64,000 bases of DNA, taken from NCBI GenBank assembly GCA_030612005.1, contig JAUWOU010000002.1, positions 915-64,914 of the forward strand, in the 5' to 3' direction. The stretch comes from Candidatus Thorarchaeota archaeon. Its GTDB lineage: Archaea; Asgardarchaeota; Thorarchaeia; Thorarchaeales; Thorarchaeaceae. The notes beneath the pieces were generated by a model, which searched no databases, was not told the DNA's origin, and saw nothing but the letters and a program-made list of their open reading frames with translations. Position numbers and translations under genes: made by a program. Position 1 is the first letter of the stretch, and every line of letters begins with the position of its first letter. This document shows positions 2,446-41,786 of this stretch, piece after piece.

Positions 2446-2450
2446 GAGGA

Positions 2451-3389: not shown

Positions 3390-3522
3390 TATCTCAGTAC
3401 TATCGTCTTACACATCATATCCAAGAGAGTATGTACAGATGGGGATTGAAAAGGACGTATGAATCGAAATGAAGGAGAGATTTAAATCATAGAACCTGCT
3501 TGACAACAAAGAGGGAGATTTC

Positions 3523-4095
3523 TTGAGCATCTTTGATGACCGTCAGTCAATGATTGAGGTTTGGAAACAACTTCGTGAAGAGATGAGACAGCATGAGGAA
3601 GATACATTGAATGCAGCTGAACGTATCAATAATCTGAGCGTTGCTATTCTACCCGTGTATTTTGTTGGGTTGGGTCTTATATTCTCAATGCTAACAGGAA
3701 TGATACAAACGATGTTTTTGTTCAGTCTCGGATTCTTCCCTCTCATTCTTGTTGCTCTAGCAATCATGGGGAAAAGGTCCCTTCGGAGGAAATACCGCAC
3801 CAGGATATACCATTTTACACAAATACGGAAGGTTGAGATGATGTTAGGACTACATGAGTCAATTTCTGGTCGACTTGAAGGGCAACCATTCCATAAGGAC
3901 ATAACTTTGTTTTCTCCTCTATATATCCCAAAAATGGAATCGTCATGGGAATTCGCGGAGAAAGTTCTTTCTGGAGAGTTCGAGAGTGAGATTTTCCCTG
4001 AAATATCCGGAGGTTATTCGGTATTCATCGTCTTCGGATCAATTCTGACAATTGTAAATTTCATTATATGGGGAATTCTGTTTCTTTCCCTCTAG
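3523..4095 (+). CDS. Hypothetical membrane protein with 4 predicted TM helices
   Basis: Hydrophobic segments (AILPVYFVGLGLIFSMLTGMIQTMFLFSLGFFPLILVALAIM; FIVFGSILTIVNFIIWGILFLSL). No recognisable family. Confidence 0.4.
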   Translation: MSIFDDRQSMIEVWKQLREEMRQHEEDTLNAAERINNLSVAILPVYFVGLGLIFSMLTGMIQTMFLFSLGFFPLILVALAIMGKRSLRRKYRTRIYHFTQIRKVEMMLGLHESISGRLEGQPFHKDITLFSPLYIPKMESSWEFAEKVLSGEFESEIFPEISGGYSVFIVFGSILTIVNFIIWGILFLSL

Positions 4096-4304
4096 TCTAT
4101 TCCTATTGATGGATATTGAAAAGGACCTATTTTCCAATAATTATCAAAATAGTTAGCCATTGGGAAATTACAGAAATACCCCCGTACAGTACCACTAAAT
4201 GATAAATAGAGCATTTGAAACCCAAATATTGCAGAACTAATATTGGAGTTCATCAAGTCGTGAGTAAGAGCAGTCTATTACCAGAGAAAAGGTGAAAGTA
4301 ACAA

Positions 4305-4823
4305 ATGAATAACCGAAAACTATTGCTTGTAACAATCTTAGCAATCTTGGTAGTAATGCCAATAATGAATGTAGCAGCATATGAAGGATTACCAACAATT
4401 TTGTTGGATGCACCTGAAACTGTTTACGCAGGAGAAACTTTCACACTGGACATAGAACTAGGTTGTGATATTGGAATGTCTTCATACAAAGTTACCTACT
4501 ACTGGGATAGTGAGGAAATAGTTCTTGTTGATGATTTTCCTCTTGCAGGTGTAACGTGGTATTCTAAATCTATTGACTTGACACTGACTCCTCCTTGGTA
4601 TTATACTAACGACGATGGTGTATCATATTACGCTCCACGATTCTTTGTGACGTGCAATGACACAGAAGAAAGGATGGTAGGAGAAAACATTATGGTGAAA
4701 ATTCTAAAGCCCGTTGAGGATACTTCGTTCTTAGGACTTCTGGGAATATTGGGAATCGTAGCCGTTGGAGCGATTATTGTCACTGTTGTAATTCTAAAGA
4801 AAAGAATGAATGGGAATATCTAG
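4305..4823 (+). CDS. Secreted or surface protein with an N-terminal signal peptide and a C-terminal TM anchor ending in a KKR tail
   Basis: N-terminus MNNRKLLLVTILAILVVMPIMNVAAYE and C-terminus LLGILGIVAVGAIIVTVVILKKRMNGNI. An AT-rich promoter-like region lies upstream (4096-4304). Confidence 0.45.
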   Translation: MNNRKLLLVTILAILVVMPIMNVAAYEGLPTILLDAPETVYAGETFTLDIELGCDIGMSSYKVTYYWDSEEIVLVDDFPLAGVTWYSKSIDLTLTPPWYYTNDDGVSYYAPRFFVTCNDTEERMVGENIMVKILKPVEDTSFLGLLGILGIVAVGAIIVTVVILKKRMNGNI

Positions 4824-4831
4824 AATCCCCG

Positions 4832-5032
4832 TTAGGGGGTAAAGCGCATCTTCATCCACTCATCCAACTCCTGTAATGATCGAAAACTCACCTTCACACT
4901 GGACTCCTGACTGTGCTCATAGACCTCAACCCTTGCACCATTGCGCTCTTTCTCTGAAAGACTGTCCACAAGGACAAGAGCCTGACGTATCTCTTCCCAC
5001 CCAGTGAGGGTCTTTCCCATCCACTGACTCAA
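4832..5032 (-). CDS. Small hypothetical protein (66 aa), last ORF of the HEPN/KaiC-like operon
   Basis: ORF starts 25 bp downstream of the HEPN gene stop on the same strand. No family recognised; it could be spurious. Confidence 0.25.
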   Translation of the reverse strand: MSQWMGKTLTGWEEIRQALVLVDSLSEKERNGARVEVYEHSQESSVKVSFRSLQELDEWMKMRFTP

Positions 5033-5057
5033 CGTAGTATCTATAATGAAAGGCGTA

Positions 5058-6506
5058 TTAAGAGCAGTGTATGAATTCTTTGTAACGACCTACTGCTTTC
5101 TCTAAACGCTTCTTTGTTACCTTAAGATTTTCAATCTGCATAGATGATTTGCCTAGATCATTGAGCAAATTATTCTCGTCTTCAGGTGTTTTGCAGTCTG
5201 AATCCAATAACATCAGAATCGATAATCGTAGACTCTCTAATAATTTCGGGGATAGTTCAGATGCTTTATCTTCATCTACCTCATTGCCATGAACAAAATC
5301 ATTCCGAATTTTATACCCCTCATAGACATTACTAAAAACTTCAGATCGATTACACCCTAAACATTCCAATAAAATAGCAACTCTTGTTGAGAGCGTAAAA
5401 CGTAGCTCAGGAGACTCTCTTTGAAGAATGGTTTCCAACCCGATTATGGAAAATAATATGGATTCAAGAGTAGGCCGTTGTGATGCTTCATTAAGCATTT
5501 TAAGTGCTCTCGCTACTCTCATGAGATTTTTTTCCTTTTTCATTCTAGTAATATACTCAGGATAGGAGGAGTTTCTAACAAGATCGTAAACCTGTAGATG
5601 TTCTTCTTTGAAATATGAGTAATCATAGACACCAAGTTTCAAAAGAAATCGTTCAACAGGTAATCGATTGTCTATAGATGAACTATATAGTACATGATCT
5701 GTTTCAGCAAACCAAGAGGAATATTTCCACTTTCCTCCTACTGCTAGTCTTAGAATCTCTATCTCTTTCTCTATCATACTGACTATTTTCTGATAATTAT
5801 CATAGAACTTGAAATGATATCCACGAGGAATTCCACTAGCCATAAATTCCAACACAGATGAAACTGCAATTACTGTTGATTCTTTCACCTCAGAAGGAAT
5901 ATTCGGCTGAGTGTTTGGTACACGAGGTACTCTAAAAGTCTTGAAGTCACTAGCCACAGGTAGTCTAATCGTTACTCCGTCTATTGAATATCGAATCTTA
6001 CTGACAAGACCGTTCAAAAATACAATACAACGCCAGTCTGTCGGTACTTGCATAATTTCATCATACGCAGTTTGTATTATTTCTTGTTTCTTTTCTGGAT
6101 GATTTATGAGTCGTTCTAGATAGTGATATGCACCAATTGAGCCATCATCCAGAAAGACACTTCCAACAATCTCTTTCAGTTCTTGAAAGAGAGGCTTAAC
6201 TTCTGTCAGTATCATTAACCTTGCATTTCGACTCAATGATTGTATTTGTTCAGACTGCCCTGGTTTGTATTGTACCGAAACTCCAAATTCGCCACCAGGT
6301 GTGATTGTAGGATGGTAGACCAAATATAGTTCAGTCCTTTTTTCTTCATCAGGAATCGATTTTATCATTGAAACAACTGATTCTGCAAATTCTTCAAGCA
6401 CAGATTTTGCTTCTTTGGGTGAATGTCTGTCTGATTTCATTACATTTCCCTCCATAATCAGAATATTCATTTTTACACTAATCAATGTTGATGAAAACAC
6501 TACCAC
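5058..6506 (-). CDS. Large protein with a C-terminal HEPN-like domain (Rx4H motif). The true start is probably an internal Met near 6440 (MKSDRHSPKEAK).
   Basis: C-terminal region ...LSTRVAILLECLG...YEGYKIRNDFVHGNEV... carries the R-x4-H signature of HEPN RNase domains in an alpha-helical context. The motif is encoded at about 5281-5320. The N-terminal 350 aa have no recognisable family. Confidence 0.55.
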   Translation of the reverse strand: MVVFSSTLISVKMNILIMEGNVMKSDRHSPKEAKSVLEEFAESVVSMIKSIPDEEKRTELYLVYHPTITPGGEFGVSVQYKPGQSEQIQSLSRNARLMILTEVKPLFQELKEIVGSVFLDDGSIGAYHYLERLINHPEKKQEIIQTAYDEIMQVPTDWRCIVFLNGLVSKIRYSIDGVTIRLPVASDFKTFRVPRVPNTQPNIPSEVKESTVIAVSSVLEFMASGIPRGYHFKFYDNYQKIVSMIEKEIEILRLAVGGKWKYSSWFAETDHVLYSSSIDNRLPVERFLLKLGVYDYSYFKEEHLQVYDLVRNSSYPEYITRMKKEKNLMRVARALKMLNEASQRPTLESILFSIIGLETILQRESPELRFTLSTRVAILLECLGCNRSEVFSNVYEGYKIRNDFVHGNEVDEDKASELSPKLLESLRLSILMLLDSDCKTPEDENNLLNDLGKSSMQIENLKVTKKRLEKAVGRYKEFIHCS

Positions 6507-6575: not shown

Positions 6576-7307
6576 TCACACCTTGAGTCCAATACCCTTG
6601 ACTGTAATCTCGTAGGGAATCACATCCATCGAGTGCATGGTCTCTCGCATTTTGACAATACGAAGTTTCCTACTTACAGTCATATCCTTTTCATCATAAC
6701 CTAATCTGATTACTCCATGTGACGCATAGCGTTCTACTCCTACTCCTGCCTGATCTAACTCTGAAGTAAGAATAGTTGTTAGGGAGAGACGAGTAAGGAC
6801 TGCGGTTAGACTGAGAACACCATTTCTTCGCTCGGTTCCTTCCATTCCATCAAGAAGTGCTGAAACTGGATCAATCACTAAACGCTGTGCATTTATCTCT
6901 TCTTTAGCTTCGGTTATTAATCGGGTCACTTCTTCAATACTGAACTTGCCTATTGGTACAGCAAGCTCAAGATTGGGTTTTAGTCCAAGTCGACCAGAAA
7001 ATGCATCGATGATTTTGAGTTGTTTAAGATCCATTAATCGTTGAAGATTCCATCCAAAGGCAGAGGCCTCTCTCATCACATCAGTCGGACTCTCATCTAG
7101 ACATACAAGAATTGCTGGTTCAGGGTCTTTTGGATTCTCAAGAATTCCAGCAATGAGAAAGTGTAATGATAGTATTGTCTTACCTGTTCCTGGAAGTCCT
7201 TCAACAAGAGTTGTGCGTCCTCTTGGAAATCCCCCTAATAACATCTCATTCAATTCTTTGATTCCGGTGCTACATCTATCCGTCTGTTTCAATGGTTTCA
7301 CCTTCAT
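6576..7307 (-). CDS. KaiC-like / RadA-like single-domain RecA-superfamily ATPase
   Basis: N-terminus GIKELNEMLLGGFPRGRTTLVEGLPGTGKTILSLHFL carries Walker A GLPGTGKT. Walker B-like ILVCLDE. About 240 aa, typical of archaeal KaiC-like proteins. Confidence 0.8.
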   Translation of the reverse strand: MKVKPLKQTDRCSTGIKELNEMLLGGFPRGRTTLVEGLPGTGKTILSLHFLIAGILENPKDPEPAILVCLDESPTDVMREASAFGWNLQRLMDLKQLKIIDAFSGRLGLKPNLELAVPIGKFSIEEVTRLITEAKEEINAQRLVIDPVSALLDGMEGTERRNGVLSLTAVLTRLSLTTILTSELDQAGVGVERYASHGVIRLGYDEKDMTVSRKLRIVKMRETMHSMDVIPYEITVKGIGLKV

Positions 7308-7893
7308 TTGTTATAGTTGGGTGTTTGAGTAAGTGCCACTTATGACTGAACTTTCCATTGTCTGATTCTCTTGTAACGTCAATGTAGTTGGTGGCAATAT
7401 ACTTCAGAGTAGCAAGACCTCGGTCAGAATGTACTCCCTTTGCTACAAATGCCAAAAATCGAACCTTTGAGAAGTCCTTAGCAATAATACGTAAACATCG
7501 ACTGATCTCTTCATCTGTAACCCCTTGGGCTACCATATCAGAAGGAGACCACCACAACCACCATGATGCTTTGATTGACTCAGCTAGCTTTCCTAGGCGA
7601 TTAAGAACTCCTTTTGTATCTGCAGGATTCTCTAAAAAGTTTTCACTATCATAATCACTCACACGTTGGCGAAGTGAATCTCGCGCAGTGGGTTCATGCC
7701 TAGTGGCGTCAATGAGAGTTGTGTTTTCTATATCAGTGTCTATTGGTTTGGAGTGGATAATGGCTTGAGAATCTTCCCCGATATCATCACGTATTTGCTT
7801 TAGCACCACATACTCTGCTTCAATTGGAAAACTGATGATACTTAGGCCACTGGTTCCAAACCATTTGTTCAATGGGATTGTAGTAATCTTCAA
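7276..7893 (-). CDS. Hypothetical protein (205 aa), translationally coupled between the HTH regulator and the KaiC-like ATPase
   Basis: Overlaps the upstream gene by 4 nt (7890-7893) and the downstream gene by 32 nt. No family recognised. Confidence 0.5.
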   Translation of the reverse strand: MKITTIPLNKWFGTSGLSIISFPIEAEYVVLKQIRDDIGEDSQAIIHSKPIDTDIENTTLIDATRHEPTARDSLRQRVSDYDSENFLENPADTKGVLNRLGKLAESIKASWWLWWSPSDMVAQGVTDEEISRCLRIIAKDFSKVRFLAFVAKGVHSDRGLATLKYIATNYIDVTRESDNGKFSHKWHLLKHPTITNEGETIETDG

Positions 7894-8435
7894 CTCCTCC
7901 TTCCTGTTTCTGTAGAAATAGTCGATTCGGAATCATCTATTGATGAAGATTGGCTATACATAGGAATACCATGGACCTGATCAAGAAGATGGGCAGTGAC
8001 AGAATCCCTTGCCATGTTTTGTTTACGAGAAATGGTAGTCTTCAATGTGTCAATATCTGTTGTCATTGTGATACAGTTTACCTGTAGCTCGTTCTGAATT
8101 TGATACACATAGACTGTTAGAGGTACATGTCCAACACCAGTCTTGAGAAAATCTATGAGGCCCTTGATGGTTGATTCCAATTCAGTCTGAAACTGGTATA
8201 GATTCGAATCAATGAGCACTTGAACTAGATATGGTTTCCCGAATATTGAAGGAATAACCTCGGGGATATATCCCAACACAAGACCATCCTCTTCCAACTT
8301 CCTGGTACGATACAGGGCTGTAGATTTGGGGATGTCCAATGCACGACCTAATGCAGCTGGACTACTTTTCACGGAGTTTCGCAATGAGAGAAGTGTAGCT
8401 GTCCAATCACCAATTGTCTTCTTCTGTTGACCCAA
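7890..8435 (-). CDS. Lrp/AsnC-like winged-HTH transcriptional regulator, first gene of the operon
   Basis: SPAALGRALDIPKSTALYRTRKLEEDGLVLGYIPEV matches the AsnC-type HTH pattern (LA..vGlS.st...Rv.rLee.GvI.gY). It is followed by a YLVQVLID region resembling a RAM-like domain. Confidence 0.6.
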   Translation of the reverse strand: MGQQKKTIGDWTATLLSLRNSVKSSPAALGRALDIPKSTALYRTRKLEEDGLVLGYIPEVIPSIFGKPYLVQVLIDSNLYQFQTELESTIKGLIDFLKTGVGHVPLTVYVYQIQNELQVNCITMTTDIDTLKTTISRKQNMARDSVTAHLLDQVHGIPMYSQSSSIDDSESTISTETGRRS

Positions 8436-8450
8436 TTTGAACCCTCAATA

Positions 8451-8518
8451 TTGTCCATTGTTCAATTCCATATAAACTCAGTTGTCCATTGTTCAACTCG
8501 AATTGTCCATTGTTCCAA
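8451..8518. promoter_or_regulatory. Three direct repeats TTGTCCATTGTTCAA (8451-8465, 8482-8496, 8504-8518; the third is TTGTCCATTGTTCCA) bracketing a TATAAA element (8471-8476), in the divergent intergenic region between the HTH-regulator operon (-) and the membrane-protein gene at 8575 (+)
   Basis: The repeats are exact 15-mers read directly from the sequence. The TATA is about 36-41 bp upstream of the ATG at 8435. This is a likely operator for the adjacent Lrp-like regulator. Confidence 0.5.
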
Positions 8519-8574
8519 AATGCTTGGGTTAATGGTTAAGTAAACTATCGGCAAGTTCTTTCTTGTGATATAAA

Positions 8575-8889
8575 ATGTCGTTTGATATCGTAAACTTCCT
8601 GTTAGGCCCAGCAGAAATCCTAACACAGGGAATGGTGGGTCTCATCTTGGGACTCGGAATGAATGCTATGCAGATCTGGTTGATGTACGAGATTGTTGTT
8701 CTTGTCCCTCCACGGTCTAAGAATCTGATCGATGCTATGGACATGGAACTCAGTCAGACTCAATACTTCAGTGGGATGAAGTATCGAATATACTCTGCAT
8801 TGTTTCAGGTCTTTTTACCACTAGTGCTGATCTGTGTATGCTACCTATCATTCTGCCTGTTCACTGACGTTGTTACATCCCTGTTCTAG
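8575..8889 (+). CDS. Small membrane protein with 2 TM helices
   Basis: GMVGLILGLGMNAMQIWLMYEIVVLV and VFLPLVLICVCYLSFCLF. Size and topology resemble CedA1/CedA2-type small proteins, but similarity cannot be tested here. Confidence 0.4.
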   Translation: MSFDIVNFLLGPAEILTQGMVGLILGLGMNAMQIWLMYEIVVLVPPRSKNLIDAMDMELSQTQYFSGMKYRIYSALFQVFLPLVLICVCYLSFCLFTDVVTSLF

Positions 8890-8903: not shown

Positions 8904-9584
8904 ATGTTAAGAATGCGCTTACGCATTGCCCACCACTCCCCTCTTTTTTTGAGGGTTATGTTTGCAATATCAATGGTCCTTCTTGTTAGCAGTATCACAC
9001 TCTGTTCAGCTCAGGAAGTAAGTGACGATATTCCATGCATAATTCTAGCCAAACCAGGGGAATTGTATGAGTTGGAGTTGTATCAGCTTGGAAATGACAC
9101 TCAGCATACTATCATTATCAGCTTTAACTTTGAGAATGAAAGTGCACACAGGTTAGAAGTGCAAGTTCCATACAATGGTAATTATGACTCAGCATCCGAA
9201 ATATATTGCGTAAATGACGACTCAGGGCTACTATTGTGCACGATAAAGTATGTAGGGATTGAAACTGTACTTCTTGGGGAAGAGCGAGCCAAGCTTGAGG
9301 TAGACAGTTCAGACTACCAAGCACGCTTAGTTGGTGTGCATTTGTCCGAGTCTTCGTCTTCAAGAGATATAGCGATTCCAAAGTCCTTTGGGATCATTCT
9401 TGCTCTGTGCAGTCTATTGCCATTCTTCCTACTGGCCCCTGATGCAATAACAGACTTGCAGGCACAACTGGAAGTAGAAGCAGCATCGAAAGGAGTGTAT
9501 GGACGGATTCTTGCTCTGCTACTCCCACTTCTAACAATCGGTTTGACTTTTTGGCTTTTGGAGAGTTTGAAAATATTCGGGTGA
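8904..9584 (+). CDS. Secreted protein with a signal peptide and a C-terminal hydrophobic region
   Basis: N-terminus MLRMRLRIAHHSPLFLRVMFAISMVLLVSSITLCSAQE. C-terminus ILALCSLLPFFLLAP...ILALLLPLLTIGLTFWLL. Confidence 0.45.
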   Translation: MLRMRLRIAHHSPLFLRVMFAISMVLLVSSITLCSAQEVSDDIPCIILAKPGELYELELYQLGNDTQHTIIISFNFENESAHRLEVQVPYNGNYDSASEIYCVNDDSGLLLCTIKYVGIETVLLGEERAKLEVDSSDYQARLVGVHLSESSSSRDIAIPKSFGIILALCSLLPFFLLAPDAITDLQAQLEVEAASKGVYGRILALLLPLLTIGLTFWLLESLKIFG

Positions 9585-10414
9585 TGAACATGACAGCAAC
9601 TACACACAAGGGATTGAAACAACGTATAGCGCATTATTATGCGAAAAAAGACGCAGAAGCGGATAAAGGATCAGAAGCGGATAAAGAACGGAAAAGGGAA
9701 CTGAAGAGGAACTGGGATCAGTCAGGAGGTTCCTTGAAAGGTTGGATGAACAAATTCACTGGAGGTCTTGATCTTCCATTCAAATCTATAGCCATCTTTG
9801 CAGGTAGTTGGATGCTTTTGGAGATTGGTTGGCCTCTCTTGATAATATTTGGAGTGGCAACCGCTGGAAACGTGTGGAGTATTGCAACCGTAATTCCATG
9901 TCTATTCATTGCAGTATATGTCAATATCATGGTTAGTGGAATGAACATGATTCGCAGCATAATCACACAATTGGGGGATCGGCGGGACAATCTGGTGAAG
10001 GCATTATTTCGAGGATACTTTTGGAGCCTCTTGTCAATTGGGCTCATTCTGATAGTCCATGAATATTTCCATACCACTATGCCAATGCTGTTCTTTATAC
10101 CCATCTTTTATCTCATACCACTCCAAGTTCTTGGAACCACAGTCCCGTTTCCTCTATTACTTGGAATAAGTGGATTGTACATGGATCTCGCCGTTACAAT
10201 CATTGTGTATGCCATTGGGATAACTGGCAGTGCCATTGGTGGCATTGAGATTCTGCGTACCCTGCTGGACAATTCTCGACAACGTGGTACATATGGTGCG
10301 ATTTTCGGTGTGTTACTTCTAGCTGTGTTCCCAGTGGTGAACATCTACTTCTCACTGGTATTTCTAACGACTACTATGGATCTTTTTGGGAGGTGTGTGT
10401 CCTTTGGCGCTTGA
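9551..10414 (+). CDS. Polytopic membrane protein with about 6-7 TM helices
   Basis: Multiple hydrophobic helices throughout. Overlaps the upstream gene by 34 nt and the downstream ATPase gene by 29 nt, indicating translational coupling. Size and topology are comparable to CedA. Confidence 0.5.
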   Translation: MAFGEFENIRVMNMTATTHKGLKQRIAHYYAKKDAEADKGSEADKERKRELKRNWDQSGGSLKGWMNKFTGGLDLPFKSIAIFAGSWMLLEIGWPLLIIFGVATAGNVWSIATVIPCLFIAVYVNIMVSGMNMIRSIITQLGDRRDNLVKALFRGYFWSLLSIGLILIVHEYFHTTMPMLFFIPIFYLIPLQVLGTTVPFPLLLGISGLYMDLAVTIIVYAIGITGSAIGGIEILRTLLDNSRQRGTYGAIFGVLLLAVFPVVNIYFSLVFLTTTMDLFGRCVSFGA

Positions 10415-13187
10415 TCCGATTGCCCTGCTGAGCTTGATAGTTCCTCTCTTAGTCGTCTTTGGATTCAGTATATTGGCCATGACTATGATCCATCTTGGAT
10501 TATCCGCAAGTGGTAATCGTTTCGCTATGGAGATTACCTGCTTCTTGGGTATGGCAGTGTTCTATGGAACTGAGATAGTCCTAGGCATAACTTCGCTAGA
10601 ACTGACTCTATCGATGCTACTACTGATTACTCCGGTTATGGTTATCGAGGCTTTCAGGCCTTCAAACGAACGTAAGGGCAACAAGCCTCAACTAGTTAAG
10701 ATTGAAGGTGGAACAGACAGGCTTGCTAAAGAAGTCCTATGCTTCGCACATGGTGATGGATATGTAGGCCTTGCAGCAATCCGGATCAAAGGCATTCCGT
10801 TACAGAATGAACGACGGAACAATAAGCATGAGGAGAATGAGGATTTCAAATGGCTATACCCATTTTGGGAAGACAGCAAGAAATCCAATGGCGTATTCAC
10901 TCTGGAAGCAAAGTTTGAGAAGGGGCTTGCTGACCTCCGTTTCTTCACGATCAGTCACGACAAGGACTTCAAACAAGCAGTGGAAAAGACAGACAGATCA
11001 AGACAGATTGCAGAAACTTGGCTCACACGTATTGAGTACGACTATGAGGTTGTATCTTCTGATGAACTATGGAATGTATATCGTGAACTGGACTATGGCT
11101 CATTGCGCGCGACTTCTATGCCGGATGTGGTACAATCAGAGGATGATGGGTATCTTAGTGGACTCTCTATTGAACATCTACCAGATAGTCTATCGAGTAA
11201 CTGGGGCGAAGTGCTTCAGCAGTTCCTAAGAAGCCGTCTTTCTGGACATGCTCTTCTCTCCTTTTCCTCAGGACCTGTTCCCAAGTTGCATGAACGGGCA
11301 GGTGAGAGCAGAGAGGACTCAAAAGTACAAACGAGAACTCCTTTCCGTGTTGAAGACCACAAACTTCGAAAAACGTACAAACAGATGGCAGAGGTTGCAG
11401 CATGTGAGGAAACAGGCGCATTTCGGGTAGGGACAGCAGTCTTGCTCCGTGGTGGAACAGCTGAAGATGTTGAGTATGCTGTGAAGCAAACAGAAGCTGT
11501 TATTCAGGGAGTATGGGGCGGAGTGAAAACTACTAACCTATCAGGTGGTCGTTTACGACATAATTGGACCAAATTCCTACTGCGTAATTACATTGGCAAA
11601 TCTACTTCTGTAAGTGGCGCACGACTGACCGGATTATTACAGATCTACGAAGCCATGCCTGGTGTTCCAAATCATATAGTACCACCTGCTTTTGCGATTC
11701 CTATTCGTCATACTTCAATTGATTCGGTCACTTTCGGTCAAATCCTTGAAAGAGGTAAGACGACTGCTCAAGAGTATAGTATTCCCATTAATTCATTCTG
11801 TCTTCATACGGGAATTTATGGCAACCCTGGAAGCGGTAAGACCAATACAGGATTGGAACTCACCCATCAGGTTTACCAACATGGAATTCCATTTCTTGCT
11901 ATCGTTCCAGCCAAAACTGAGTGGAGAATGCTATCAGCATACATTCCAGAGCTACGGATCTTTACTGCTGGTGATGATTCTACTTCACCATTCCGATACA
12001 ATTTCTTCGATGTTCCACCGGGAGTTCCTATTCAGACACACATCAACAACATTACACTATGTTTCATAGCAAATTGGCCAACAGAGGGAATTCTCACTGA
12101 ACATATCACGAAGATATTCAGACGAACCTATACCAATGCAGGCTGGAACTTGCTCACGAACGAGCGAGGCAGTCCCATTCTACTGAATGACTTGTACTCC
12201 GCAATGGAAGAGGTCGCAAACGAACTAAGGTATGGGGCTCGCTTGAAACAAGACTTTGTGGGAGCCCTTACTGCAAGGTTTGAGTCCCTTTTGGATGATC
12301 CTGTATTGTCTGTCATGCTAAACACTAGACATGGGATAACAATACCCGAATTGTTGAGTAATCCGACAATTCTAGAGCTTCGTCATCTTCCTGATACTCA
12401 AAGAGCACTAATAACGAGCCTGATCATGGTGGCAGTGACGGAGTATCTTGAAGCTCAGGAGCCTTCTATCAATCAAGAGTTACGTCATTTACTAGTCTTG
12501 GAGGAAGCTCACCACGTTCTGAAACGTGTTGGGAATGGATACGGCATAAATGAGGGTCATTCATCCCAGCAGCAGGCAATCAACACCATCGTTCAACTCC
12601 TTCGTGAGGCACGCGGTCTCGGCTTGGGTGTGGTACTGATCGACCAGTTACCGGGAAGTCTGGCTGATGCTGCAGTAAAGCTTCCAGGTATCACGATGAT
12701 CCACTCACTCAAGGATGCACGAGAGAGACTTCTGGTGGGGGGTCAGGCAAACTTGAATGATGCGCAACTCCTGCACATAGGCTCTCTGAAATGTGGAGAA
12801 GTAGTCATCCATCAAGCCTTTGAAGGCCCAGCGGTACTTGCTCAAGTGTTTCAATTCCGTAGAAAACACGCAGCCGAACCTTGGACTGACAGACGAGTAG
12901 CAGACATGATGACGCCTTTCTTCATTGCAAACCCACATCTCCGAAGTCAGAACCTTCCCATGATACGACGGTGGGAAGCTGATCCCGTAGTACTTGACAA
13001 TCTCAAATTTCTGACAGTATCGCTAGATTTCAGAAAGGCATACATAGAATGTCTTGTCCAAGGGCAGGAATATGCAGACGCATACGTCTTGGGGTTAGTA
13101 CAGGAACTCGTTCCCAACTTCACAGAAGCCGCCCACTACTGCAATTGTCTAGTTGACCATCTTGGGGAGGTTGAGAGCAGTGGATGA
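10386..13187 (+). CDS. Membrane-anchored HerA/FtsK/VirB4-superfamily P-loop ATPase (CedB/TedB-like architecture)
   Basis: N-terminal ~90 aa contain 3-4 TM helices. Walker A GIYGNPGSGKTN is encoded at about 11825-11860. Walker B of HerA type (hhhhEEAH) is LLVLEEAHHVL, encoded at about 12490-12520. Confidence 0.7.
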   Translation: MGGVCPLALDPIALLSLIVPLLVVFGFSILAMTMIHLGLSASGNRFAMEITCFLGMAVFYGTEIVLGITSLELTLSMLLLITPVMVIEAFRPSNERKGNKPQLVKIEGGTDRLAKEVLCFAHGDGYVGLAAIRIKGIPLQNERRNNKHEENEDFKWLYPFWEDSKKSNGVFTLEAKFEKGLADLRFFTISHDKDFKQAVEKTDRSRQIAETWLTRIEYDYEVVSSDELWNVYRELDYGSLRATSMPDVVQSEDDGYLSGLSIEHLPDSLSSNWGEVLQQFLRSRLSGHALLSFSSGPVPKLHERAGESREDSKVQTRTPFRVEDHKLRKTYKQMAEVAACEETGAFRVGTAVLLRGGTAEDVEYAVKQTEAVIQGVWGGVKTTNLSGGRLRHNWTKFLLRNYIGKSTSVSGARLTGLLQIYEAMPGVPNHIVPPAFAIPIRHTSIDSVTFGQILERGKTTAQEYSIPINSFCLHTGIYGNPGSGKTNTGLELTHQVYQHGIPFLAIVPAKTEWRMLSAYIPELRIFTAGDDSTSPFRYNFFDVPPGVPIQTHINNITLCFIANWPTEGILTEHITKIFRRTYTNAGWNLLTNERGSPILLNDLYSAMEEVANELRYGARLKQDFVGALTARFESLLDDPVLSVMLNTRHGITIPELLSNPTILELRHLPDTQRALITSLIMVAVTEYLEAQEPSINQELRHLLVLEEAHHVLKRVGNGYGINEGHSSQQQAINTIVQLLREARGLGLGVVLIDQLPGSLADAAVKLPGITMIHSLKDARERLLVGGQANLNDAQLLHIGSLKCGEVVIHQAFEGPAVLAQVFQFRRKHAAEPWTDRRVADMMTPFFIANPHLRSQNLPMIRRWEADPVVLDNLKFLTVSLDFRKAYIECLVQGQEYADAYVLGLVQELVPNFTEAAHYCNCLVDHLGEVESSG

Positions 13188-15321
13188 AGGTTCTGACTTC
13201 GCCTCTTCTCCATTGGTTTCTTATTGGTCTGAAACACGGTTAGATATCATTCTTTGGAAGAATGAGAGTGAGTCATATCGCGGTTTCTTAAAGTACAGCA
13301 ATCCCACGGTTTCAGCGGAACTTGAGAATGGAACAACCGTCGTTCCTGATACGAAAGAAGACCTATGCGTAACTATTGAGTATGAAGTCATATTGAAAGA
13401 AACAGGGATAAGTGAACAAAGACCCCTGAAAAGACCAGTCAAGATACTCCTTAACCCAATTGTCACTCAACGTTACAGGTATTTTCCAAACCTTGATGGT
13501 AGAGGGGAATTTATCTTTCCGCCATCAACCAATAGATTCTACTCAAGACTTTTTGTTCTGGATCTTGAAAAATACTATGATGACGACGGTAGTATAGGTG
13601 CTCGTTGTTCCCTTCATCAGTGTCCAAATCAGAAGGATAGACTATGGCTCACAATATCAAACTCAGAAACCGGAGAGATCTACGAAGCCTTCCTCATCCA
13701 CCACTATGAAGGTAACATCTTTTTGATGCCCAATGATGCCCAGTTAGATTTTGCCCTTGCAAAGAGGTATGCAGATGGTGTTCGCAAATCGGACCTGTTC
13801 GATGTTGAAGGGCTCCTGAAAGGGCCACCGCCATCAATGGCCCAGCTAGCGATGTTGGTGCAGGATGTCAATGTACCGAACCTTATGATACATGATACCC
13901 TTGAGAGAACAATCTCACAACTAGTACCTCAGGTGTTTCCTGAAAACATAAGACAAAGCCTTTGCGTTTTCCTTGGCCTCCTTGCTCTTGATAAGATTGA
14001 ACAACGCAAGGACCCTGATGATCTTTCGGTCGAGTTCGCCCCTTGGAGAATGGTCAGTTCTCTCTACAATAGTCACTTACTTTACACTATTCTAAAAATC
14101 GAATCACCTTCATACGTTCGACTCATGCATCTAGCTGCACGAAGGGAGATGCAAGGAATCGGTAGAACTGTTAGGGAAGATATTGGTAAGAGTGAGTGGC
14201 TCATGTTCTGGCATCTACTTCACGATGGAGTGAAGAATTTCCGTGATGAGATACCTATTCTTCTGGATATCGTAGAAAGATCGAATCAGTTGGGTACGAT
14301 TACAGGCAAAATCATACCCTCCAAGTCTACGGGGCAACGTTCACGTAAGGCTTGGGTGACACGGTTAGTATGTAACTCTTCAGTTACTAGCCCCTCACTG
14401 ATTTGTACTCCCAATCTAAAGGCTCTTGGACTTGATCAGATTCTCTATCTGGGGTCCGCCTATTGCTGGCCTCACAGGCACATGTCATATATCACAAGTT
14501 TAGGAAGATGGCAGGTTAATAATCCACCACATCTACAACACATGATCCTCCCCTCGAAGGCTTCCGAACGAATCAGACGTCTGATTCCGTCAGTGTTGAA
14601 TGTTACTTGGAGTAGTAGGACTTTCAATCCTGACCTGTATACTAATCAGTGGAATGTGCGACCAGATGATATCTTGAGTTCCTTAGGTCGGACTAGACCA
14701 CTAACCACTCTGAGAAAGAAGTACTATACTCCTTCCCTCTGTGATGTTGATTATATTACTCCAACTGAAGCCTTGGTCATGGATATCATTACACGCTCAT
14801 TTCACATGATGTATTTCAAAGAACGACCATATTTGTTCGAGAAAATGTTCGGGATTGAGAAGCAACTTTTCATTCGTACTGCGCGTTCGTTGGCCAAGAG
14901 AGGGGTTCTGGAGCCACAATATATCCTAATCCCACTACTTCCTACACTGGCTACCATTGCCTGTGGAGAACCAAAGAATATCGTTTCTCTTGCTGATGCA
15001 TTTCTGTCGGGATCTCCTACATGCACAGCCTACATCTGTAACGAGGGAAACGATGCAGTCTTTCTCTCTCGAATACCACCCTCAGACCTAGGAGAACTTG
15101 CTAGGTCGCTCCCACAAGCAGGACAAGAACATGGGACTACCATTCGCTGTTTTAGACCTCACACCCTTAGAAGTTACAATCATTCGCTATACCAGAGATT
15201 ACTACGAGAGGATGGCACATGGGATGATGATGTGCGTGGATTCCTCTCTCAGGCACGAGGGAAGAGAGTTGAGATTGCAAATGTAATTGATAGCATGAAA
15301 ATTAAGAGTTGTATAACATGA
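13153..15321 (+). CDS. Large hypothetical protein (722 aa), translationally coupled to the ATPase
   Basis: Start overlaps the ATPase stop by 35 nt. No recognisable motifs by eye. Confidence 0.5.
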   Translation: MTILGRLRAVDEGSDFASSPLVSYWSETRLDIILWKNESESYRGFLKYSNPTVSAELENGTTVVPDTKEDLCVTIEYEVILKETGISEQRPLKRPVKILLNPIVTQRYRYFPNLDGRGEFIFPPSTNRFYSRLFVLDLEKYYDDDGSIGARCSLHQCPNQKDRLWLTISNSETGEIYEAFLIHHYEGNIFLMPNDAQLDFALAKRYADGVRKSDLFDVEGLLKGPPPSMAQLAMLVQDVNVPNLMIHDTLERTISQLVPQVFPENIRQSLCVFLGLLALDKIEQRKDPDDLSVEFAPWRMVSSLYNSHLLYTILKIESPSYVRLMHLAARREMQGIGRTVREDIGKSEWLMFWHLLHDGVKNFRDEIPILLDIVERSNQLGTITGKIIPSKSTGQRSRKAWVTRLVCNSSVTSPSLICTPNLKALGLDQILYLGSAYCWPHRHMSYITSLGRWQVNNPPHLQHMILPSKASERIRRLIPSVLNVTWSSRTFNPDLYTNQWNVRPDDILSSLGRTRPLTTLRKKYYTPSLCDVDYITPTEALVMDIITRSFHMMYFKERPYLFEKMFGIEKQLFIRTARSLAKRGVLEPQYILIPLLPTLATIACGEPKNIVSLADAFLSGSPTCTAYICNEGNDAVFLSRIPPSDLGELARSLPQAGQEHGTTIRCFRPHTLRSYNHSLYQRLLREDGTWDDDVRGFLSQARGKRVEIANVIDSMKIKSCIT

Positions 15322-16733
15322 GAGATATCGAAGAACTTTCAGATGATGAATCTCACATTGAAGATAGAGGAACAAAGGTCAAAGACTTCGAGAATCGTTC
15401 TCTGACTACTGAGGAACGTGATAAGATCATTCGCGAGTACAATGCTGAACATTCCATACATCGAATAATTCCTGATGCGGTCGATACACTAGACCAATCT
15501 GATAGGATTGTAACCGATTCAGAAAATCTTAATGATACTGATGAAGATACCGACTCTAGTTCTGAAAAAAAGAAGATAGATTCTGAAGAGGTTTGCAGAT
15601 TGTACATTGAGGATGGGCTGAGTCTAAAAGAAGTAGGAAAAATTTTCGGCTTCAAAACTGGTGCACCAATAAAACGAATATTAGAGGCTGAGGGGCTAGA
15701 ATTGCGATCAGCTGGAGCTCAAAAAACTGATATTAACTCTGAAGAGGTTTGCAGACTATATCTTGAGGAAGAACTGAGTCTGGATAAGATAGGAGAACAT
15801 TTTGGTCTTAAATCCCGTAGCCCTGTCAAACGAATCCTAGAAACTGCGGGAGTGGAAATACGCCCAGTCGGTTTTCAGAAGATAGATATTGACCATGATG
15901 AGGTCTATAGATTGTACTTTGAGGAGCGCAAGGATCTCAAAGAGATTGCTGACCACTTCGATTGCAAATCCACAGACCCCATCCATCGTATTTTTGATGA
16001 GCAGGGTTGGAAGACAAGGTATCAGGAAACCTATGAGAAGGATTTCGAACCTGAAGAGGTCTTTAGATTATACAATGAAGATGGATTGTCTTTGAGAAAG
16101 ATTGGGGAACATTTTGGGGTTTCAATTGGTCCTATCCGTAGAATCTTCGAAGAACATAACATGGAGTATGGTCAGGAGATTCAGATTGATCCAGAAGTTA
16201 TCCATAAGCTGTACTTTGATGAAGGATTGTCAAAAGAAGAAGTATGTGAGCGTCTTGGTGTTTCAAAGAGACCAATTAATCGTATAATTGAAGAGCAAGA
16301 TCTATTGAGGAACAGGAGTGGGTTGATTGACATTGATGATTTTTCTAGATTATACTATGTAGAAGAATTGACAATGACAGAAATATCCAAACATTTTGAA
16401 GTTTCACAAAATACTCTCAAGCGATTCCTCAAAAAGCACAAGTTGGAAGAAAGAACTACTAGAACTGTAAGAGAGATACGCGATGAGATGTTTGGTAAAG
16501 ATTGTGTATCCTGTCGAAGACCAAAAGAGGTTATTCATAAAAAGGATGGAGAGCCGCATGAGCGTTATAGAACTTGGACTAAGAAGGCATTACGAACAGT
16601 GAATCCAAACGAATGGGTGGCATTATGTGAACCCTGTCACAGGTTAACCCATTCTCTTATGAAATCATTTAGTTGTGAATGGGATGACATTGAAAAAATA
16701 CTAACAGAACTCGCAAAAGAATGGTTATCCTAG
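15309..16733 (+). CDS. Protein with six tandem HTH repeats (sigma-70 region-4-like) and a C-terminal HNH endonuclease motif
   Basis: Repeats of about 50 aa such as EEVCRLYIEDGLSLKEVGKIFGFKTGAPIKRILEAEGLELR. C-terminal CVSCRRPKEVIHKKDGEPHERYRTWTKKALRTVNPNEWVALCEPCHRLTH has HNH-like C-x2-C...H...N...C-x2-C-H spacing. Overlaps the upstream gene by 13 nt. Confidence 0.65.
   Translation: MYNMRDIEELSDDESHIEDRGTKVKDFENRSLTTEERDKIIREYNAEHSIHRIIPDAVDTLDQSDRIVTDSENLNDTDEDTDSSSEKKKIDSEEVCRLYIEDGLSLKEVGKIFGFKTGAPIKRILEAEGLELRSAGAQKTDINSEEVCRLYLEEELSLDKIGEHFGLKSRSPVKRILETAGVEIRPVGFQKIDIDHDEVYRLYFEERKDLKEIADHFDCKSTDPIHRIFDEQGWKTRYQETYEKDFEPEEVFRLYNEDGLSLRKIGEHFGVSIGPIRRIFEEHNMEYGQEIQIDPEVIHKLYFDEGLSKEEVCERLGVSKRPINRIIEEQDLLRNRSGLIDIDDFSRLYYVEELTMTEISKHFEVSQNTLKRFLKKHKLEERTTRTVREIRDEMFGKDCVSCRRPKEVIHKKDGEPHERYRTWTKKALRTVNPNEWVALCEPCHRLTHSLMKSFSCEWDDIEKILTELAKEWLS
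15585..16440 (+). repeat. In-frame tandem repeat array of about 150-156 bp units within the CDS, encoding the HTH repeats
   Basis: GAAGAGGTTTGCAGAYTRTA recurs at 15585 and 15741 at nucleotide level. The protein repeats are more diverged further 3'. Confidence 0.6.
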
Positions 16734-41096: not shown

Positions 41097-41786
41097 TCAC
41101 TCTTTCTCATTGGTACGTTCAACTGAGAAGCCAGATTCTGTAAGGAAAAGTCGCCCCTCTGATATATCACCTTCAGGTACAAGTCTTCTCAATAATCGTT
41201 CTCCTGAGGATTTTCCTATCATCATCTTAATTACATAATCAGACCAATAATCTAAGATATTTTTAGCAACCGGCTCAACGTCATCTAATCCCTTTAATCT
41301 AGATGTGACCTGATTCAATACAATTACTGCAATATCGTTATGTCTAGCTAATCCCTTTAAAACACCAGCCTGTCGATTGAGTTCACGATGATTAGCATAG
41401 TTTGTTTTCTTGTCCTCGAGCGCCAATCTGTAATGCTTTGTAAGAGTATCAATAACAACTAATCGTGTGTTCTTACGGATGTACAGATTCAAGTCGTCAA
41501 TTAGTACACCCTGCTCACTAAATCCCTTAGGTACGAAGATCTTGACTAGAGTTTCAATGTCACTGAATGACTTTCCTGTCATCAGCTCTAGCCGTTCAAC
41601 AGGGGATGTTGTTTCTGAATTAATGTAGATGGTGCCCCATCCTTGCCTATACATTGCCCTTACAAATTGTAATCCAAAAGTAGTCTTTCCTGCAGCTGCT
41701 TCACCATAAACATGGGTGAAGATCCCAGTATTCAGACCACCATTCATTATTCGATCCAGAAGGGAAACGCCTGACGGAAGAATCAA
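41097..41786 (-). CDS. radB: RadB-like recombinase paralog
   Basis: GVSLLDRIMNGGLNTGIFTHVYGEAAAGKTTFGLQF carries the Walker A motif. About 229 aa, typical of RadB. Confidence 0.75.
   Translation of the reverse strand: MILPSGVSLLDRIMNGGLNTGIFTHVYGEAAAGKTTFGLQFVRAMYRQGWGTIYINSETTSPVERLELMTGKSFSDIETLVKIFVPKGFSEQGVLIDDLNLYIRKNTRLVVIDTLTKHYRLALEDKKTNYANHRELNRQAGVLKGLARHNDIAVIVLNQVTSRLKGLDDVEPVAKNILDYWSDYVIKMMIGKSSGERLLRRLVPEGDISEGRLFLTESGFSVERTNEKE

Follow-up and report, generated by a model that had tools for sequence, protein, structure and literature searches.

Three 15-bp boxes in the intergenic region at 8436-8574 are likely to serve as operator sites of the adjacent, divergently transcribed regulator of the Lrp/AsnC (FFRP) type. 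The fold of the regulator, the form and spacing of the sites, their conserved layout and the co-variation of the boxes with the DNA-contact loop of the regulator all speak for the proposal of an earlier, sequence-only reading that this divergent promoter carries an Lrp operator array, details of which are corrected below. Boxes 1 (8451..8465) and 2 (8482..8496) are both exact copies of TTGTCCATTGTTCAA at the positions claimed for them, and the near-exact third copy, TTGTCCATTGTTCCA, is present with one substitution at 8503..8517, one base to the left of the claimed 8504-8518. The distance from box 1 to box 2, start to start or centre to centre, is 31 bp as had been read, and that from box 2 to box 3 is 21 bp rather than 22 bp. 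No strand is assigned to the boxes; on the + strand box 1 reads TTGTCC-ATT-GTTCAA, which is TTGAAC-AAT-GGACAA in the orientation of the regulator, and all three boxes fit into 67 bp directly ahead of the regulator gene.

The repeat is real, far beyond chance and unique in the 64-kb window (the whole stretch of DNA that was analysed). A scan of the 64-kb window found no other site with one mismatch or fewer to the 15-mer, and an exact 15-mer repeated within 100 bp occurred in 0 of 200 windows simulated with a third-order Markov model. Scored by a symmetrised weight matrix derived from the orthologous boxes, the three sites reach 18.4-21.2 bits and the next best site 12.4 bits. The assumption that the 15-mer is not a dispersed repeat also holds outside the window, as in the orthologous loci L001, L002, L003 and L006 the exact 15-mer is confined to the corresponding two sites ahead of the regulator. 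A viral repeat was likewise rejected, the viral contigs giving only isolated single matches, never clustered and at the chance level for a collection of that size. Several additional sites were considered and discarded. A pair at 45447-45461 and 45477-45491, 30 bp apart, falls in the coding sequence of topoisomerase I, scores at most 12.4 bits and is attributed to chance. A possible fourth box inside the regulator gene (8332-8346, 12/15 to the ideal palindrome) and extra TGTCCA half-sites at 8333 and 8400 were rejected because the conserved ALDI and DWT codons account for them; these in-gene candidates vary at synonymous positions (GGACAT to GGATAT in L003 and L004) and ignore the specificity change of group B described below. 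The further close repeats of the window (9654/9672, 41285/41348 and 63743/63800) were not taken as operators because all of them lie inside ORFs.

Comparison among the Thorarchaeota loci indicates that the functional unit is an imperfect 6+3+6 palindrome (semi-palindrome) rather than a direct repeat as such, so that the earlier description as a direct repeat was right about the repeated boxes and missed the symmetry within each of them. The boxes of the window are themselves only 5/7 dyad-symmetric, a level common by chance in this region, and the palindrome reading therefore rests on the orthologues. The ideal box form TTGTCC-ATT-GGACAA (central triplet ATT/AAT) is intact in two relatives. 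Box 2 is a perfect palindrome, TTGTCCATTGGACAA, in L008 and L009 and keeps 6/7 dyad pairs in L004, L020 and L010, and the distant relatives L014 and L015 (45% identity) have the perfect palindrome TCGACGATTCGTCGA 5 bp from a TATA-like CTTAATAG. Box 3 is the best palindrome of the three in group B, TGGTACAATGTACGA, and the most degenerate box in group A (0.79 identity; degenerate in L008), its position being conserved. The central triplet is AAT or ATT in 29 of the 33 boxes catalogued from 11 loci. SELEX on archaeal FFRPs has yielded sites of the form abcdeWWWe'd'c'b'a' with an AAT/ATT centre (PMC2715240), and the boxes, judged by sequence only, have the 13-15-bp (semi)palindromic form with an A/T centre that is typical of Lrp/AsnC sites.

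It is also evident that the arrangement of the boxes has been maintained. The three-box layout, with spacings of 21 and 31-32 bp, is kept in 11 loci whose regulators are 57-90% identical, and the layout of boxes and TATA is kept down to 57% regulator identity. Spacing by two or three helical turns is a known pattern of archaeal Lrp sites (PMC2995911), and the distances of 31 and 21 bp agree with such an array. Box 1 stands at -30 from the start codon in the group A loci, with a within-group column identity of 0.93. Column identity of the boxes is 0.87-0.99 within groups (0.79 for box 3 of group A) and 0.76-0.81 across groups, that of the basal elements is 0.88-0.95 across groups, and the spacer between boxes 2 and 3 has diverged (identity 0.59).

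The regulator gene (7890..8435, minus strand) encodes a protein of 181 aa and begins with TTG, not with the ATG that had been placed at 8435. Its product consists of a winged helix-turn-helix (wHTH) and a beta-alpha-beta-beta-alpha-beta domain. Pfam HTH_24 matches it with E 1.6e-4 (21.6 bits, just under the cutoff of 21.9), and the Pfam RAM model PF01037 gave no match at E <= 0.01. A profile search of the PDB with the regulator family detected ST1022 (E 3e-6), a halophilic Lrp (2.5e-3) and LrpA (3.4e-3), and more weakly FL11, E. coli Lrp and LrpC; the alignment with ST1022 is gapless over 55 residues and includes an identical IPKST loop. The AF2 model (pLDDT 75) has three helices and a wing, followed by a C-terminal domain of the order E67-76, H83-99, E104-113, E116-125, H128-138 and E146-150, and ends in a disordered tail with the conserved sequence GIPMYSQ. 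In a Foldseek search with this model, the top 29 matches are all full-length Lrp/AsnC proteins aligned over 140-160 columns; the TM-scores are low, at 0.31-0.41, since the monomer model orients the domains differently with respect to each other. An AsnC/Lrp-type wHTH is thus recognisable, and a RAM/ACT-like C-terminal domain is seen in the predicted structure and goes undetected by sequence; according to the model, the regulator has the Lrp/AsnC fold despite the absence of a Pfam RAM match. Homologues of the regulator were found only in Thorarchaeota. The host organism is known only from metagenomes.

In the contact pattern described for FFRPs, residues 34-37 (loop) and 39 (helix 3) recognise the site, and residues 34-37 touch bases a, b and d (PMC2715240). 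Among the loci compared here, regulators with the loop P-K-S-T have the half-sites T-T-G-T-C-C and those with the loop D-R-K-K, such as the group B regulator P0005, have the half-sites T-S-N-K-A-C; bases a, b and d of the box vary between the groups, and base c and residue 39' (Leu) are constant. Likeness between non-orthologous boxes is 0.73 within a group versus 0.59 between groups. The distant L014 site (TCGACG) breaks a simple Thr37-T(a) rule, though the L014 regulator keeps Thr at 37'. By these alignments, the box sequence changes together with the DNA-contact loop of the regulator, a correlation that is partly confounded with overall divergence.

The regulator operon has its TATA box at 8470..8476 on the minus strand, reading TTTATAT, with TTAWAT invariant in 11 aligned loci; the TATAAA reported on the + strand at 8471-8476 is part of it. 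This TATA is centred about 38 nt before the TTG, and no other TATA-like element occurs between the boxes and the start of the regulator. Relative to the regulator gene, box 1 follows the TATA after 4 bp and precedes the transcription start, which is predicted near 8446-8449 on the minus strand; box 2 is 5 bp upstream of the TATA and would therefore overlap or abut a BRE. A Shine-Dalgarno-like GAGGG (8442..8446, minus strand) precedes the TTG at -11 to -7 and is kept in 10 of the 11 aligned loci, with a column identity of 0.95. On the other side, the most strongly conserved intergenic block, above the boxes in this respect, is aaaatgcttgggYtaatgRttaagtaaacta at 8518..8548 of the + strand (column identity 0.92 in all groups), within which a TATA-like TTAAGTAA occupies 8536-8543. 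This block is the probable core promoter of the + strand operon, and the distance from TTAAGTAA to the ATG agrees with that between TATA and start codon in the regulator promoter and in the TTTAAATA promoter of L014. Transcription of the + strand operon is predicted to begin near 8560-8567. Box 3 is 18 bp upstream of this TATA-like element. A Shine-Dalgarno-like GTGAT (8565..8569, + strand), which appears as an invariant ATCAC in the alignment in regulator orientation, stands at -10 to -6 from the ATG at 8575, where the divergent ORF had correctly been said to start.

Each box would be bound by one dimer of the regulator. The spacings of 31 and 21 bp correspond to about three and two helical turns, which would set three dimers on one face of the DNA and so let them bind cooperatively and perhaps wrap the DNA. 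The TATA of the lrp, orf205 and kaiC-like operon is sandwiched between boxes 1 and 2. Because box 1 borders this TATA downstream, its occupation should block recruitment of RNA polymerase and give negative autoregulation of the LrpA type; lrp-orf205-kaiC is probably autoregulated by repression through box 1. Occupancy of box 2 may add occlusion of TFB and the BRE or, at low occupancy, exert positive feedback as in the Ss-LrpB switch. Box 3 may tie the divergent six-gene membrane-protein/ATPase operon to the same nucleoprotein complex, with either sign of regulation. The autoregulation of the regulator and the coupling of the two operons are inferences, and so are binding, the transcription start sites, the sign of regulation and the effector.

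The second gene of the regulator operon (7276..7893, minus strand) encodes a 205-aa protein of unknown function. Its 4-nt overlap with the stop codon of the regulator suggests that the two genes are translationally coupled in one operon. In all longer loci the gene after the regulator encodes a protein of about 188-205 aa; a PDB search with the single 205-aa sequence gave no meaningful match. The third gene (6576..7307, minus strand) encodes a single-domain KaiC-like ATPase (Pfam PF06745, E 2e-56) and is kept downstream of the 205-aa gene in L020-L024. The former label of a HEPN/KaiC-like operon has to be given up with respect to HEPN: the 5058-6506 protein has no match to a HEPN family model in Pfam or NCBIfam and shows only an R-x4-H motif (RNDFVH), and its gene falls outside the conserved module, since L020, L021, L022 and L023 have different genes after kaiC. 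Lrp/AsnC proteins assemble from dimers up to octamers and respond to small-molecule effectors, in most cases amino acids; the conserved C-terminal tail of the regulator and the co-transcribed KaiC-like ATPase hint, speculatively, at an input of another kind.

The divergent operon (+ strand) begins with a small hydrophobic protein of 104 aa (8575..8889, by hydropathy), whose gene is called at the matching position in all related loci. It is followed by a 226-aa protein with one N-terminal and two C-terminal hydrophobic segments (8904..9584) and a polytopic membrane protein of 276-287 aa with about 5-6 hydrophobic segments (9551..10414); searches of Pfam, NCBIfam, PADLOC and PHROGs returned no family matches for the 226-aa protein, and none for the 104-aa and 276-287-aa membrane proteins. 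The fourth gene (10386..13187) encodes a membrane-anchored P-loop ATPase of the HerA/VirB4/DptH (FtsK-HerA) class with three N-terminal TM helices and the Walker A motif GNPGSGKT. By sequence it matches HerA-type proteins only (PDB profile search, HerA 4d2i at E 9e-17), and by structure its top 11 Foldseek matches are TrwK/VirB4 (E 2e-18 to 3e-14, over 840-950 columns). It scores 39 bits against NCBIfam CedD, far under the cutoff of 600, and its family is confined to Thorarchaeota. The name "Ced-like" given earlier to this operon is thus not established, the closest relative of the ATPase within its class depending on the method. The last two genes overlap with their neighbours in the same operon and encode a 713-722-aa protein of unknown function (13153..15321), which is conserved in L019, L021 and L145 and for which a PDB search with the single 722-aa sequence gave no meaningful match, and a 474-aa protein (15309..16733) whose HTH repeats, of the sigma-70-region-4/Cbp1 type, form an array. 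In L023 the homologues of these last two proteins appear as a single fused protein of 1121 aa. Housekeeping genes for ribosomal protein S2 and the mevalonate pathway border the module, its neighbourhoods differ between genomes, and no integrase, relaxase, replication or phage-family genes were found in it; a mobile element or defence island was rejected on the basis of these flanks and the lack of integrase, relaxase and phage matches. PADLOC matches reflect only generic P-loop and HTH similarities (mad8, HerA and mad1).

The boxes could instead be an operator for another protein, either the 474-aa HTH-array protein or an unlinked regulator. Tandem-HTH proteins such as Cbp1 bind repeated DNA, the 474-aa protein belongs to the module, is fused to the upstream protein in L023 and matches NCBIfam Cbp1 at E 2e-16 (below the model cutoff), and on the + strand the box resembles two direct heptamers, TTGTCCA and TTGTTCA. 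However, this heptamer reading fails in group B and in L014, and the perfect or near-perfect dyad symmetry of the orthologues favours a symmetric dimer over a tandem array. The 6+3+6 form with its AAT/ATT centre and the spacing by two and three turns are hallmarks of FFRPs, and the boxes vary in step with the contact loop of the Lrp-like protein, so that we consider another binding protein unlikely. It is far less probable that the repeats are a cis-acting DNA-processing site, oriT-like or iteron-like, for the neighbouring ATPase machinery. The adjacent operon does encode a membrane-anchored HerA/VirB4-class ATPase, and transfer origins often adjoin transfer genes and hold repeats; against this, every locus keeps the boxes in the same register relative to TATA and start codon, the module contains no detected relaxase, integrase or replication gene and has housekeeping flanks, and DNA transfer by the neighbouring machinery is itself putative.

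A function of the repeats in RNA, as part of a long 5' leader of the + operon starting from the 8471 TATA, seems slightly less probable again. An archaeal TATA is nearly symmetric, and rightward firing would put boxes 2 and 3 in a leader of about 75 nt, but box 1 would then lie on the opposite side of the TATA, a strongly conserved promoter-like block of the + operon itself stands at the usual distance from its ATG, and the DNA-level dyad symmetry and helical phasing point to protein-DNA recognition. A structured RNA was rejected, there being no Rfam match at E <= 1. The identity of two copies would also be expected after a recent local duplication, yet a functionless repeat arising in this way or by chance is barely credible: the simulated windows contain no such repeat, and the boxes hold their position in loci with regulators only 57-81% identical, where the spacers between them have diverged. 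Operator sites of the Lrp-type regulator are thus our preferred interpretation of the boxes.

A close parallel is Ss-LrpB of Saccharolobus (Sulfolobus) solfataricus, whose own control region contains three regularly spaced 15-bp palindromic boxes; one dimer binds each box cooperatively and wraps the DNA, and the protein controls itself and co-regulates neighbouring genes (PMC1802622, PMC4046817). The Thorarchaeota locus likewise has three 15-bp boxes in the control region of the regulator. The Ss-LrpB consensus TTGCAA[AAT/ATT]TTGCAA and TTGTCC[ATT]GGACAA have the outer TTG...CAA and the AAT/ATT centre in common, and the contact loop P-x-S-T is common to the two regulators, which are only remotely related as proteins. 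The inner bases of the half-sites are G+C-rich (TCC/GGA) in Thorarchaeota and A+T-rich for Ss-LrpB. Whereas all three Ss-LrpB boxes lie upstream of the promoter with its BRE and TATA, which yields a switch from activation to repression with rising concentration, two of the Thorarchaeota boxes flank the TATA, and this layout accordingly resembles LrpA-type repression at box 1 plus an upstream site. The Thorarchaeota operator would thus work in the manner of that of Ss-LrpB with a layout of its own. Unlike Ss-LrpB, the Thorarchaeota regulator has an extra conserved C-terminal tail and shares its operon with a KaiC-like ATPase, and its predicted target is a membrane/ATPase operon instead of porDAB and permeases. 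LrpA of Pyrococcus furiosus represses its own gene from a site that borders the TATA downstream and blocks recruitment of RNA polymerase (PMC2995911). Box 1 occupies an LrpA-like position and may act by the same mechanism, although LrpA protects one extended region and the Thorarchaeota locus has three discrete phased boxes, one of them facing the divergent promoter.

In their sequences, the boxes and the co-variation also fit the recognition mode shared by FL11, FL10 and TvFL3 (PMC2715240), with the L014 relatives departing from the FFRP Thr37-T(a) rule. The closest solved structure is ST1022 (Grp) of Sulfurisphaera tokodaii, the best match in both sequence and fold (E 3e-6; Foldseek E 2e-5); overall identity is only about 20%, ST1022 ends without the C-terminal tail at 150 aa, and its ligand glutamine cannot be carried over to the Thorarchaeota regulator. 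The divergent operon can be compared with Ced/Ted DNA import and bacterial type IV secretion, which use CedA/A1/A2/B and VirB2/B6/B4 (PMC9905601). By hydropathy only, the 276-287-aa protein would be a candidate for a VirB6/CedA-like polytopic channel and the small hydrophobic 104-aa protein one for a VirB2/CedA1-like two-TM pilin, next to a membrane-anchored ATPase of the VirB4/HerA class. The best full-length Foldseek matches of this ATPase are TrwK/VirB4; its sequence matches HerA-type proteins only, and its CedD score is far under the cutoff. A literature search for an Asgard VirB4-like system found nothing relevant.

Viewed comparatively, the operator reads as a textbook-style archaeal Lrp switch and is a clean, comparatively supported example from an Asgard lineage. 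To our knowledge, no Asgard transcription factor-operator pair has yet been studied experimentally. The operator also marks a conserved, Thorarchaeota-restricted module, possibly a secretion or DNA-transfer machine, in which the Lrp-like, 205-aa and KaiC-like proteins face three membrane proteins, the HerA/VirB4-class ATPase and two further proteins. A more far-reaching and rather doubtful possibility is that the Lrp-like regulator, its 205-aa partner and the KaiC-like ATPase form a lineage-specific switch of an undescribed, Thorarchaeota-only transfer machine derived from VirB4/HerA. If so, the switched machine would be an undescribed Asgard apparatus for the transfer of DNA or macromolecules, in the class of type IV secretion and Ced/Ted, and the operator would give a first regulatory handle on it. 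The candidate regulator-site pair opens the module of this uncultured organism to in vitro work, and the subgroups P-K-S-T/TTGTCC and D-R-K-K/TSNKAC offer a ready natural test of the FFRP recognition code.

The exact 15-mer TTGTCCATTGTTCAA noted in the sequence-only reading is present at 8451-8465 (box 1) and 8482-8496 (box 2), and its third copy, TTGTCCATTGTTCCA, indeed carries one substitution; this copy lies at 8503-8517 (box 3), one base to the left of the 8504-8518 assigned to it, and the start-to-start spacings are therefore 31 bp, as reported, and 21 bp instead of 22 bp. TATAAA at 8471-8476 and the ATG at 8575 of the plus-strand ORF hold as described; the minus-strand ORF of the Lrp-like regulator (7890..8435), to which an ATG had been given, starts with TTG. 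No further TTGTCCATTGTTCAA site with at most one mismatch occurs elsewhere in the 64-kb window, and an exact 15-mer repeated no more than 100 bp apart arose in 0 of 200 third-order-Markov simulated windows. Under a weight matrix built from the orthologous boxes, the three boxes score 18-21 bits, against 12.4 bits for the runner-up site, in the topoisomerase I gene. A chance origin of the repeat is excluded. Two weak box-like matches 30 bp apart, at 45447-45461 (12.4 bits) and 45477-45491 (9.7 bits), fall within the topoisomerase I coding sequence (45208-47322, minus strand) and are probably due to chance. Box-like sequences are also found within the regulator coding region at 8332-8346, where 12 of the 15 positions agree with the ideal palindrome, and at 8399-8413, and five TGTCCA hexamers occur on one strand in 172 bp. 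Both box-like sequences were rejected: codons for conserved residues account for them, and their synonymous sites are not conserved.

To describe the boxes across loci, we aligned the intergenic regions of 11 loci carrying regulators of 57-90% identity. In regulator orientation, the window reads box 3 (TGGAACAATGGACAA), 6 bp, box 2 (TTGAACAATGGACAA), 5 bp, TTTATAT, 4 bp, box 1 (again TTGAACAATGGACAA), 4 bp, GAGGG, 6 bp and TTG. The aligned loci share the spacings (21 and 31-32 bp), a TATA placed between boxes 2 and 1, and GAGGG ahead of the start codon. Dyad symmetry within the window alone (5/7) is unconvincing, because several unrelated 15-mers of the same region equal it, and the palindrome reading thus depends on the orthologues. 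Box 2 is the perfect palindrome TTGTCCATTGGACAA in L008 and L009 and has 6/7 dyad pairs matched in L004 and L020. L014 and L015, whose regulators show ~45% identity, bear another perfect palindrome, TCGACGATTCGTCGA, 5 bp from the TATA-like CTTAATAG, the same distance as that of box 2 in the window. Because orthologous boxes are perfect or near-perfect palindromes, each "direct repeat" is, on sequence grounds, a 6+3+6 inverted repeat whose halves match imperfectly. The central triplet is AAT or ATT in 29 of 33 boxes, and in group A, the regulator subgroup that includes the window, the half-site nearer the gene is almost invariant (TTGTCCA in 9/12 boxes) and the opposite half weaker.

Sites of this form are familiar from archaeal FFRPs, which recognise abcdeWWWe'd'c'b'a' with AAT or ATT at the centre according to SELEX, bases a-e being read by residues 34-37 and 39 in FL11 numbering (Yokoyama et al., PMC2715240). 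Neighbouring Lrp sites are two or three helical turns apart; LrpA binds next to the TATA, on its downstream side, to repress its own promoter; activators use a site directly upstream of the BRE (Peeters and Charlier, PMC2995911). The control region of the Ss-LrpB gene contains three 15-bp boxes (TTGCAAAATTTGCAA) at regular spacing; the protein occupies them cooperatively with wrapping of the DNA, and its autoregulation is both positive and negative (PMC1802622; PMC4046817). The window boxes resemble these sites in length, symmetry, central triplet, outer TTG...CAA and phasing. Moreover, Ss-LrpB has the loop P-I-S-T where the window regulator has P-K-S-T, and it reads T(a)G(b), as found in the window boxes.

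A search of 5.8 billion proteins yielded 23 relatives of the regulator at 46-87% identity; those whose organism is named by the source are all Candidatus Thorarchaeota (Asgard archaea), as are all five in the genome collection, and some carry the NCBI label Lrp/AsnC. Pfam gave a borderline HTH_24 match to the regulator and no match for a RAM domain. A PDB search with the family profile matched ST1022 (E 3e-6); E-values close to 3e-3 were obtained for LrpA and a halophilic Lrp, and weaker matches for FL11, E. coli Lrp and LrpC. The HTH aligns with that of ST1022 without gaps, the IPKST loop being identical. The AlphaFold model (pLDDT 75) comprises three helices and a wing, then a linker, a beta-alpha-beta-beta-alpha-beta domain and a disordered tail. 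In Foldseek, the top 29 PDB matches of this model are without exception full-length Lrp/AsnC/FFRP proteins; the TM-scores are low, owing to a different orientation of the two domains in the monomer model. The Lrp-like label is borne out by profile, loop, model and Foldseek matches alike, and the regulator is therefore filed as a divergent Lrp/AsnC member. Its C-terminal tail (window 7890-7985, residues ~150-181) is disordered and without counterpart in classical Lrp proteins; a G-[IV]-P-x-Y-S motif is conserved in it, and residues rich in Ser, Thr and Asp come next. The gene of the tail-bearing regulator is predicted to share a transcript with those of a KaiC-like ATPase and a ~205-aa protein, and the tail could serve for docking or be a target of modification. 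In remoter paralogues (42-47% identity; L005, L013, L016 and L017), a co-oriented gene precedes the regulator in place of the divergent membrane operon, and the family thus has at least two genomic arrangements.

Residues were mapped by anchoring on the conserved Gly after helix 3, so that FL11 residue n corresponds to regulator residue n+2. The FL11 sequence used is consistent with the residue identities printed in the PMC2715240 paper. The contact loop is P-K-S-T with Leu at 39' in the window regulator and its closest relatives (group A), and D-R-K-K with the Leu kept in a second subgroup (B; L010, L019, L021, L022 and L023). Over all half-sites (n=24 in group A, n=30 in subgroup B), base a is T in 20/24 of group A versus G or C in 27/30 of subgroup B, base b is G in 23/24 versus degenerate, base c is T or A versus T or G, and base d is C in 13/24 and A in 8/24 versus A in 29/30, whereas base e is C throughout (24/24 and 30/30). 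Column identity of the boxes is 0.79-0.99 inside each subgroup but 0.76-0.81 across subgroups; for the TATA, the Shine-Dalgarno motif and the other promoter block it is 0.88-0.95 across all groups. Likewise, non-orthologous boxes of one subgroup are more alike (0.73) than those drawn from different subgroups (0.59). Such concerted change of three sites and the contact loop is the strongest available evidence that the adjacent regulator would read the boxes, but it falls short of proof because loop and boxes also diverge with time.

One rival reader of the boxes is the 474-aa HTH-array protein of the plus-strand operon, which could bind repeated DNA; the Lrp-like protein is the better candidate in view of the symmetry of the dyads, of a site form that fits FFRPs and of the way the boxes co-vary with the contact loop. 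Support is poor for each of three other readings, namely an oriT-like role, action at the RNA level and chance duplication. We consider it likely that the boxes are the operator of the neighbouring Lrp-like regulator, and the core of the original proposal, an Lrp-type operator in a divergent control region, is upheld by site form, phasing, fold and co-variation. Judged by its sequence, the element is a putative Lrp-type multi-box autoregulatory operator, a kind already well known; what makes it of interest is chiefly the lineage, the natural switch of specificity between regulator subgroups and the uncharacterised module under the putative operator's control.

The TATA at 8470-8476 is the sole TATA-like element upstream of the regulator start, its centre ~38 nt from the TTG, with GAGGG at -11 to -7. 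The best conserved intergenic part is the promoter-like block of the plus operon (8518-8548), in which TTAAGTAA occupies 8536-8543; GTGAT follows at -10 to -6 relative to the ATG. A dimer on box 1, which is situated between the TATA and the position expected for the transcription start, should prevent RNA polymerase from being recruited, as with LrpA. Box 2, 5 bp upstream of the TATA, would overlap a BRE; it could strengthen the repression or, at low occupancy, have a positive effect like that proposed for Ss-LrpB. Boxes 1 and 2 are equal in the window; box 2 is the better palindrome in L004 and L008, so sequential filling would be allowed. Since box 3 ends 18 bp upstream of the TATA-like TTAAGTAA, it could activate the plus operon, repress it through wrapping, or do no more than make the complex formed at boxes 1 and 2 more stable. 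Negative autoregulation is, by a modest preference, what we would expect as the main effect of the putative operator. In three promoters (8470-8476 for the start at 8435, 8536-8543 for that at 8575, and the one upstream in L014), the TATA centre lies ~36-38 nt before the start codon and a Shine-Dalgarno-like GAGGG, GTGAT or GGTGA at ~-11 to -6; this geometry suggests very short leaders starting at or shortly before the Shine-Dalgarno motif, and could be a lineage habit.

The window is chromosomal, with genes for ribosomal protein S2, aconitase X, UbiD-like, GHMP-kinase, XPD-like helicase and topoisomerase I nearby. All longer related contigs share the same module, and genes outside it vary between genomes. 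On one side, the regulator is followed by a ~188-205-aa protein overlapping its stop codon and by a single-domain KaiC-like ATPase; the divergent side encodes proteins of 104, ~190-226, ~271-287, ~925 and ~700 aa and, in the window, the 474-aa HTH-array protein. The gene previously called HEPN (482 aa, 5058-6506, minus strand) has no HEPN family match and is not conserved in the module; its product bears an R-x4-H motif (RNDFVH) close to the C-terminus, and among the loci examined it lies downstream of kaiC in this genome alone.

In the divergent operon, the 933-aa protein, of a family restricted to Thorarchaeota, combines a P-loop domain with three TM helices at its N-terminus. Its profile matches are of HerA type (4d2i, E 9e-17), including defence-system HerAs, and it scores 39 bits against NCBIfam CedD (cutoff 600); TrwK/VirB4 of the R388 type IV secretion system ranked first in Foldseek, over 840-950 columns. 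The small proteins are hydrophobic and gave no match in family searches, and the 287-aa protein is polytopic. With this layout, the operon would at most be a candidate for a Ced/Ted/T4SS-like apparatus of the kind that Beltran et al. describe (PMC9905601), with which it is compatible; our literature search found no description of such a system in Asgard archaea. Other close direct repeats in the window include the exact 15-mer CAGAAGCGGATAAAG with an 18-bp period (9654-9689, inside ORF 9551-10414), which translates into an EADK motif repeated close to the N-terminus of the polytopic membrane protein, and the 14-mer AAGGCATTTTACCT (63743-63813, 57-bp spacing) and 13-mer CTAATCCCTTTAA (41285-41360, 63-bp spacing), which are probably repeated coding motifs because both lie within ORFs. 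The last gene of the operon (15309-16733, plus strand) encodes the 474-aa protein, with several sigma-70-region-4/Cbp1-like HTH repeats; at the corresponding position L023 has a single 1121-aa gene (1895-5260), which suggests a fusion with the upstream ~700-aa protein.
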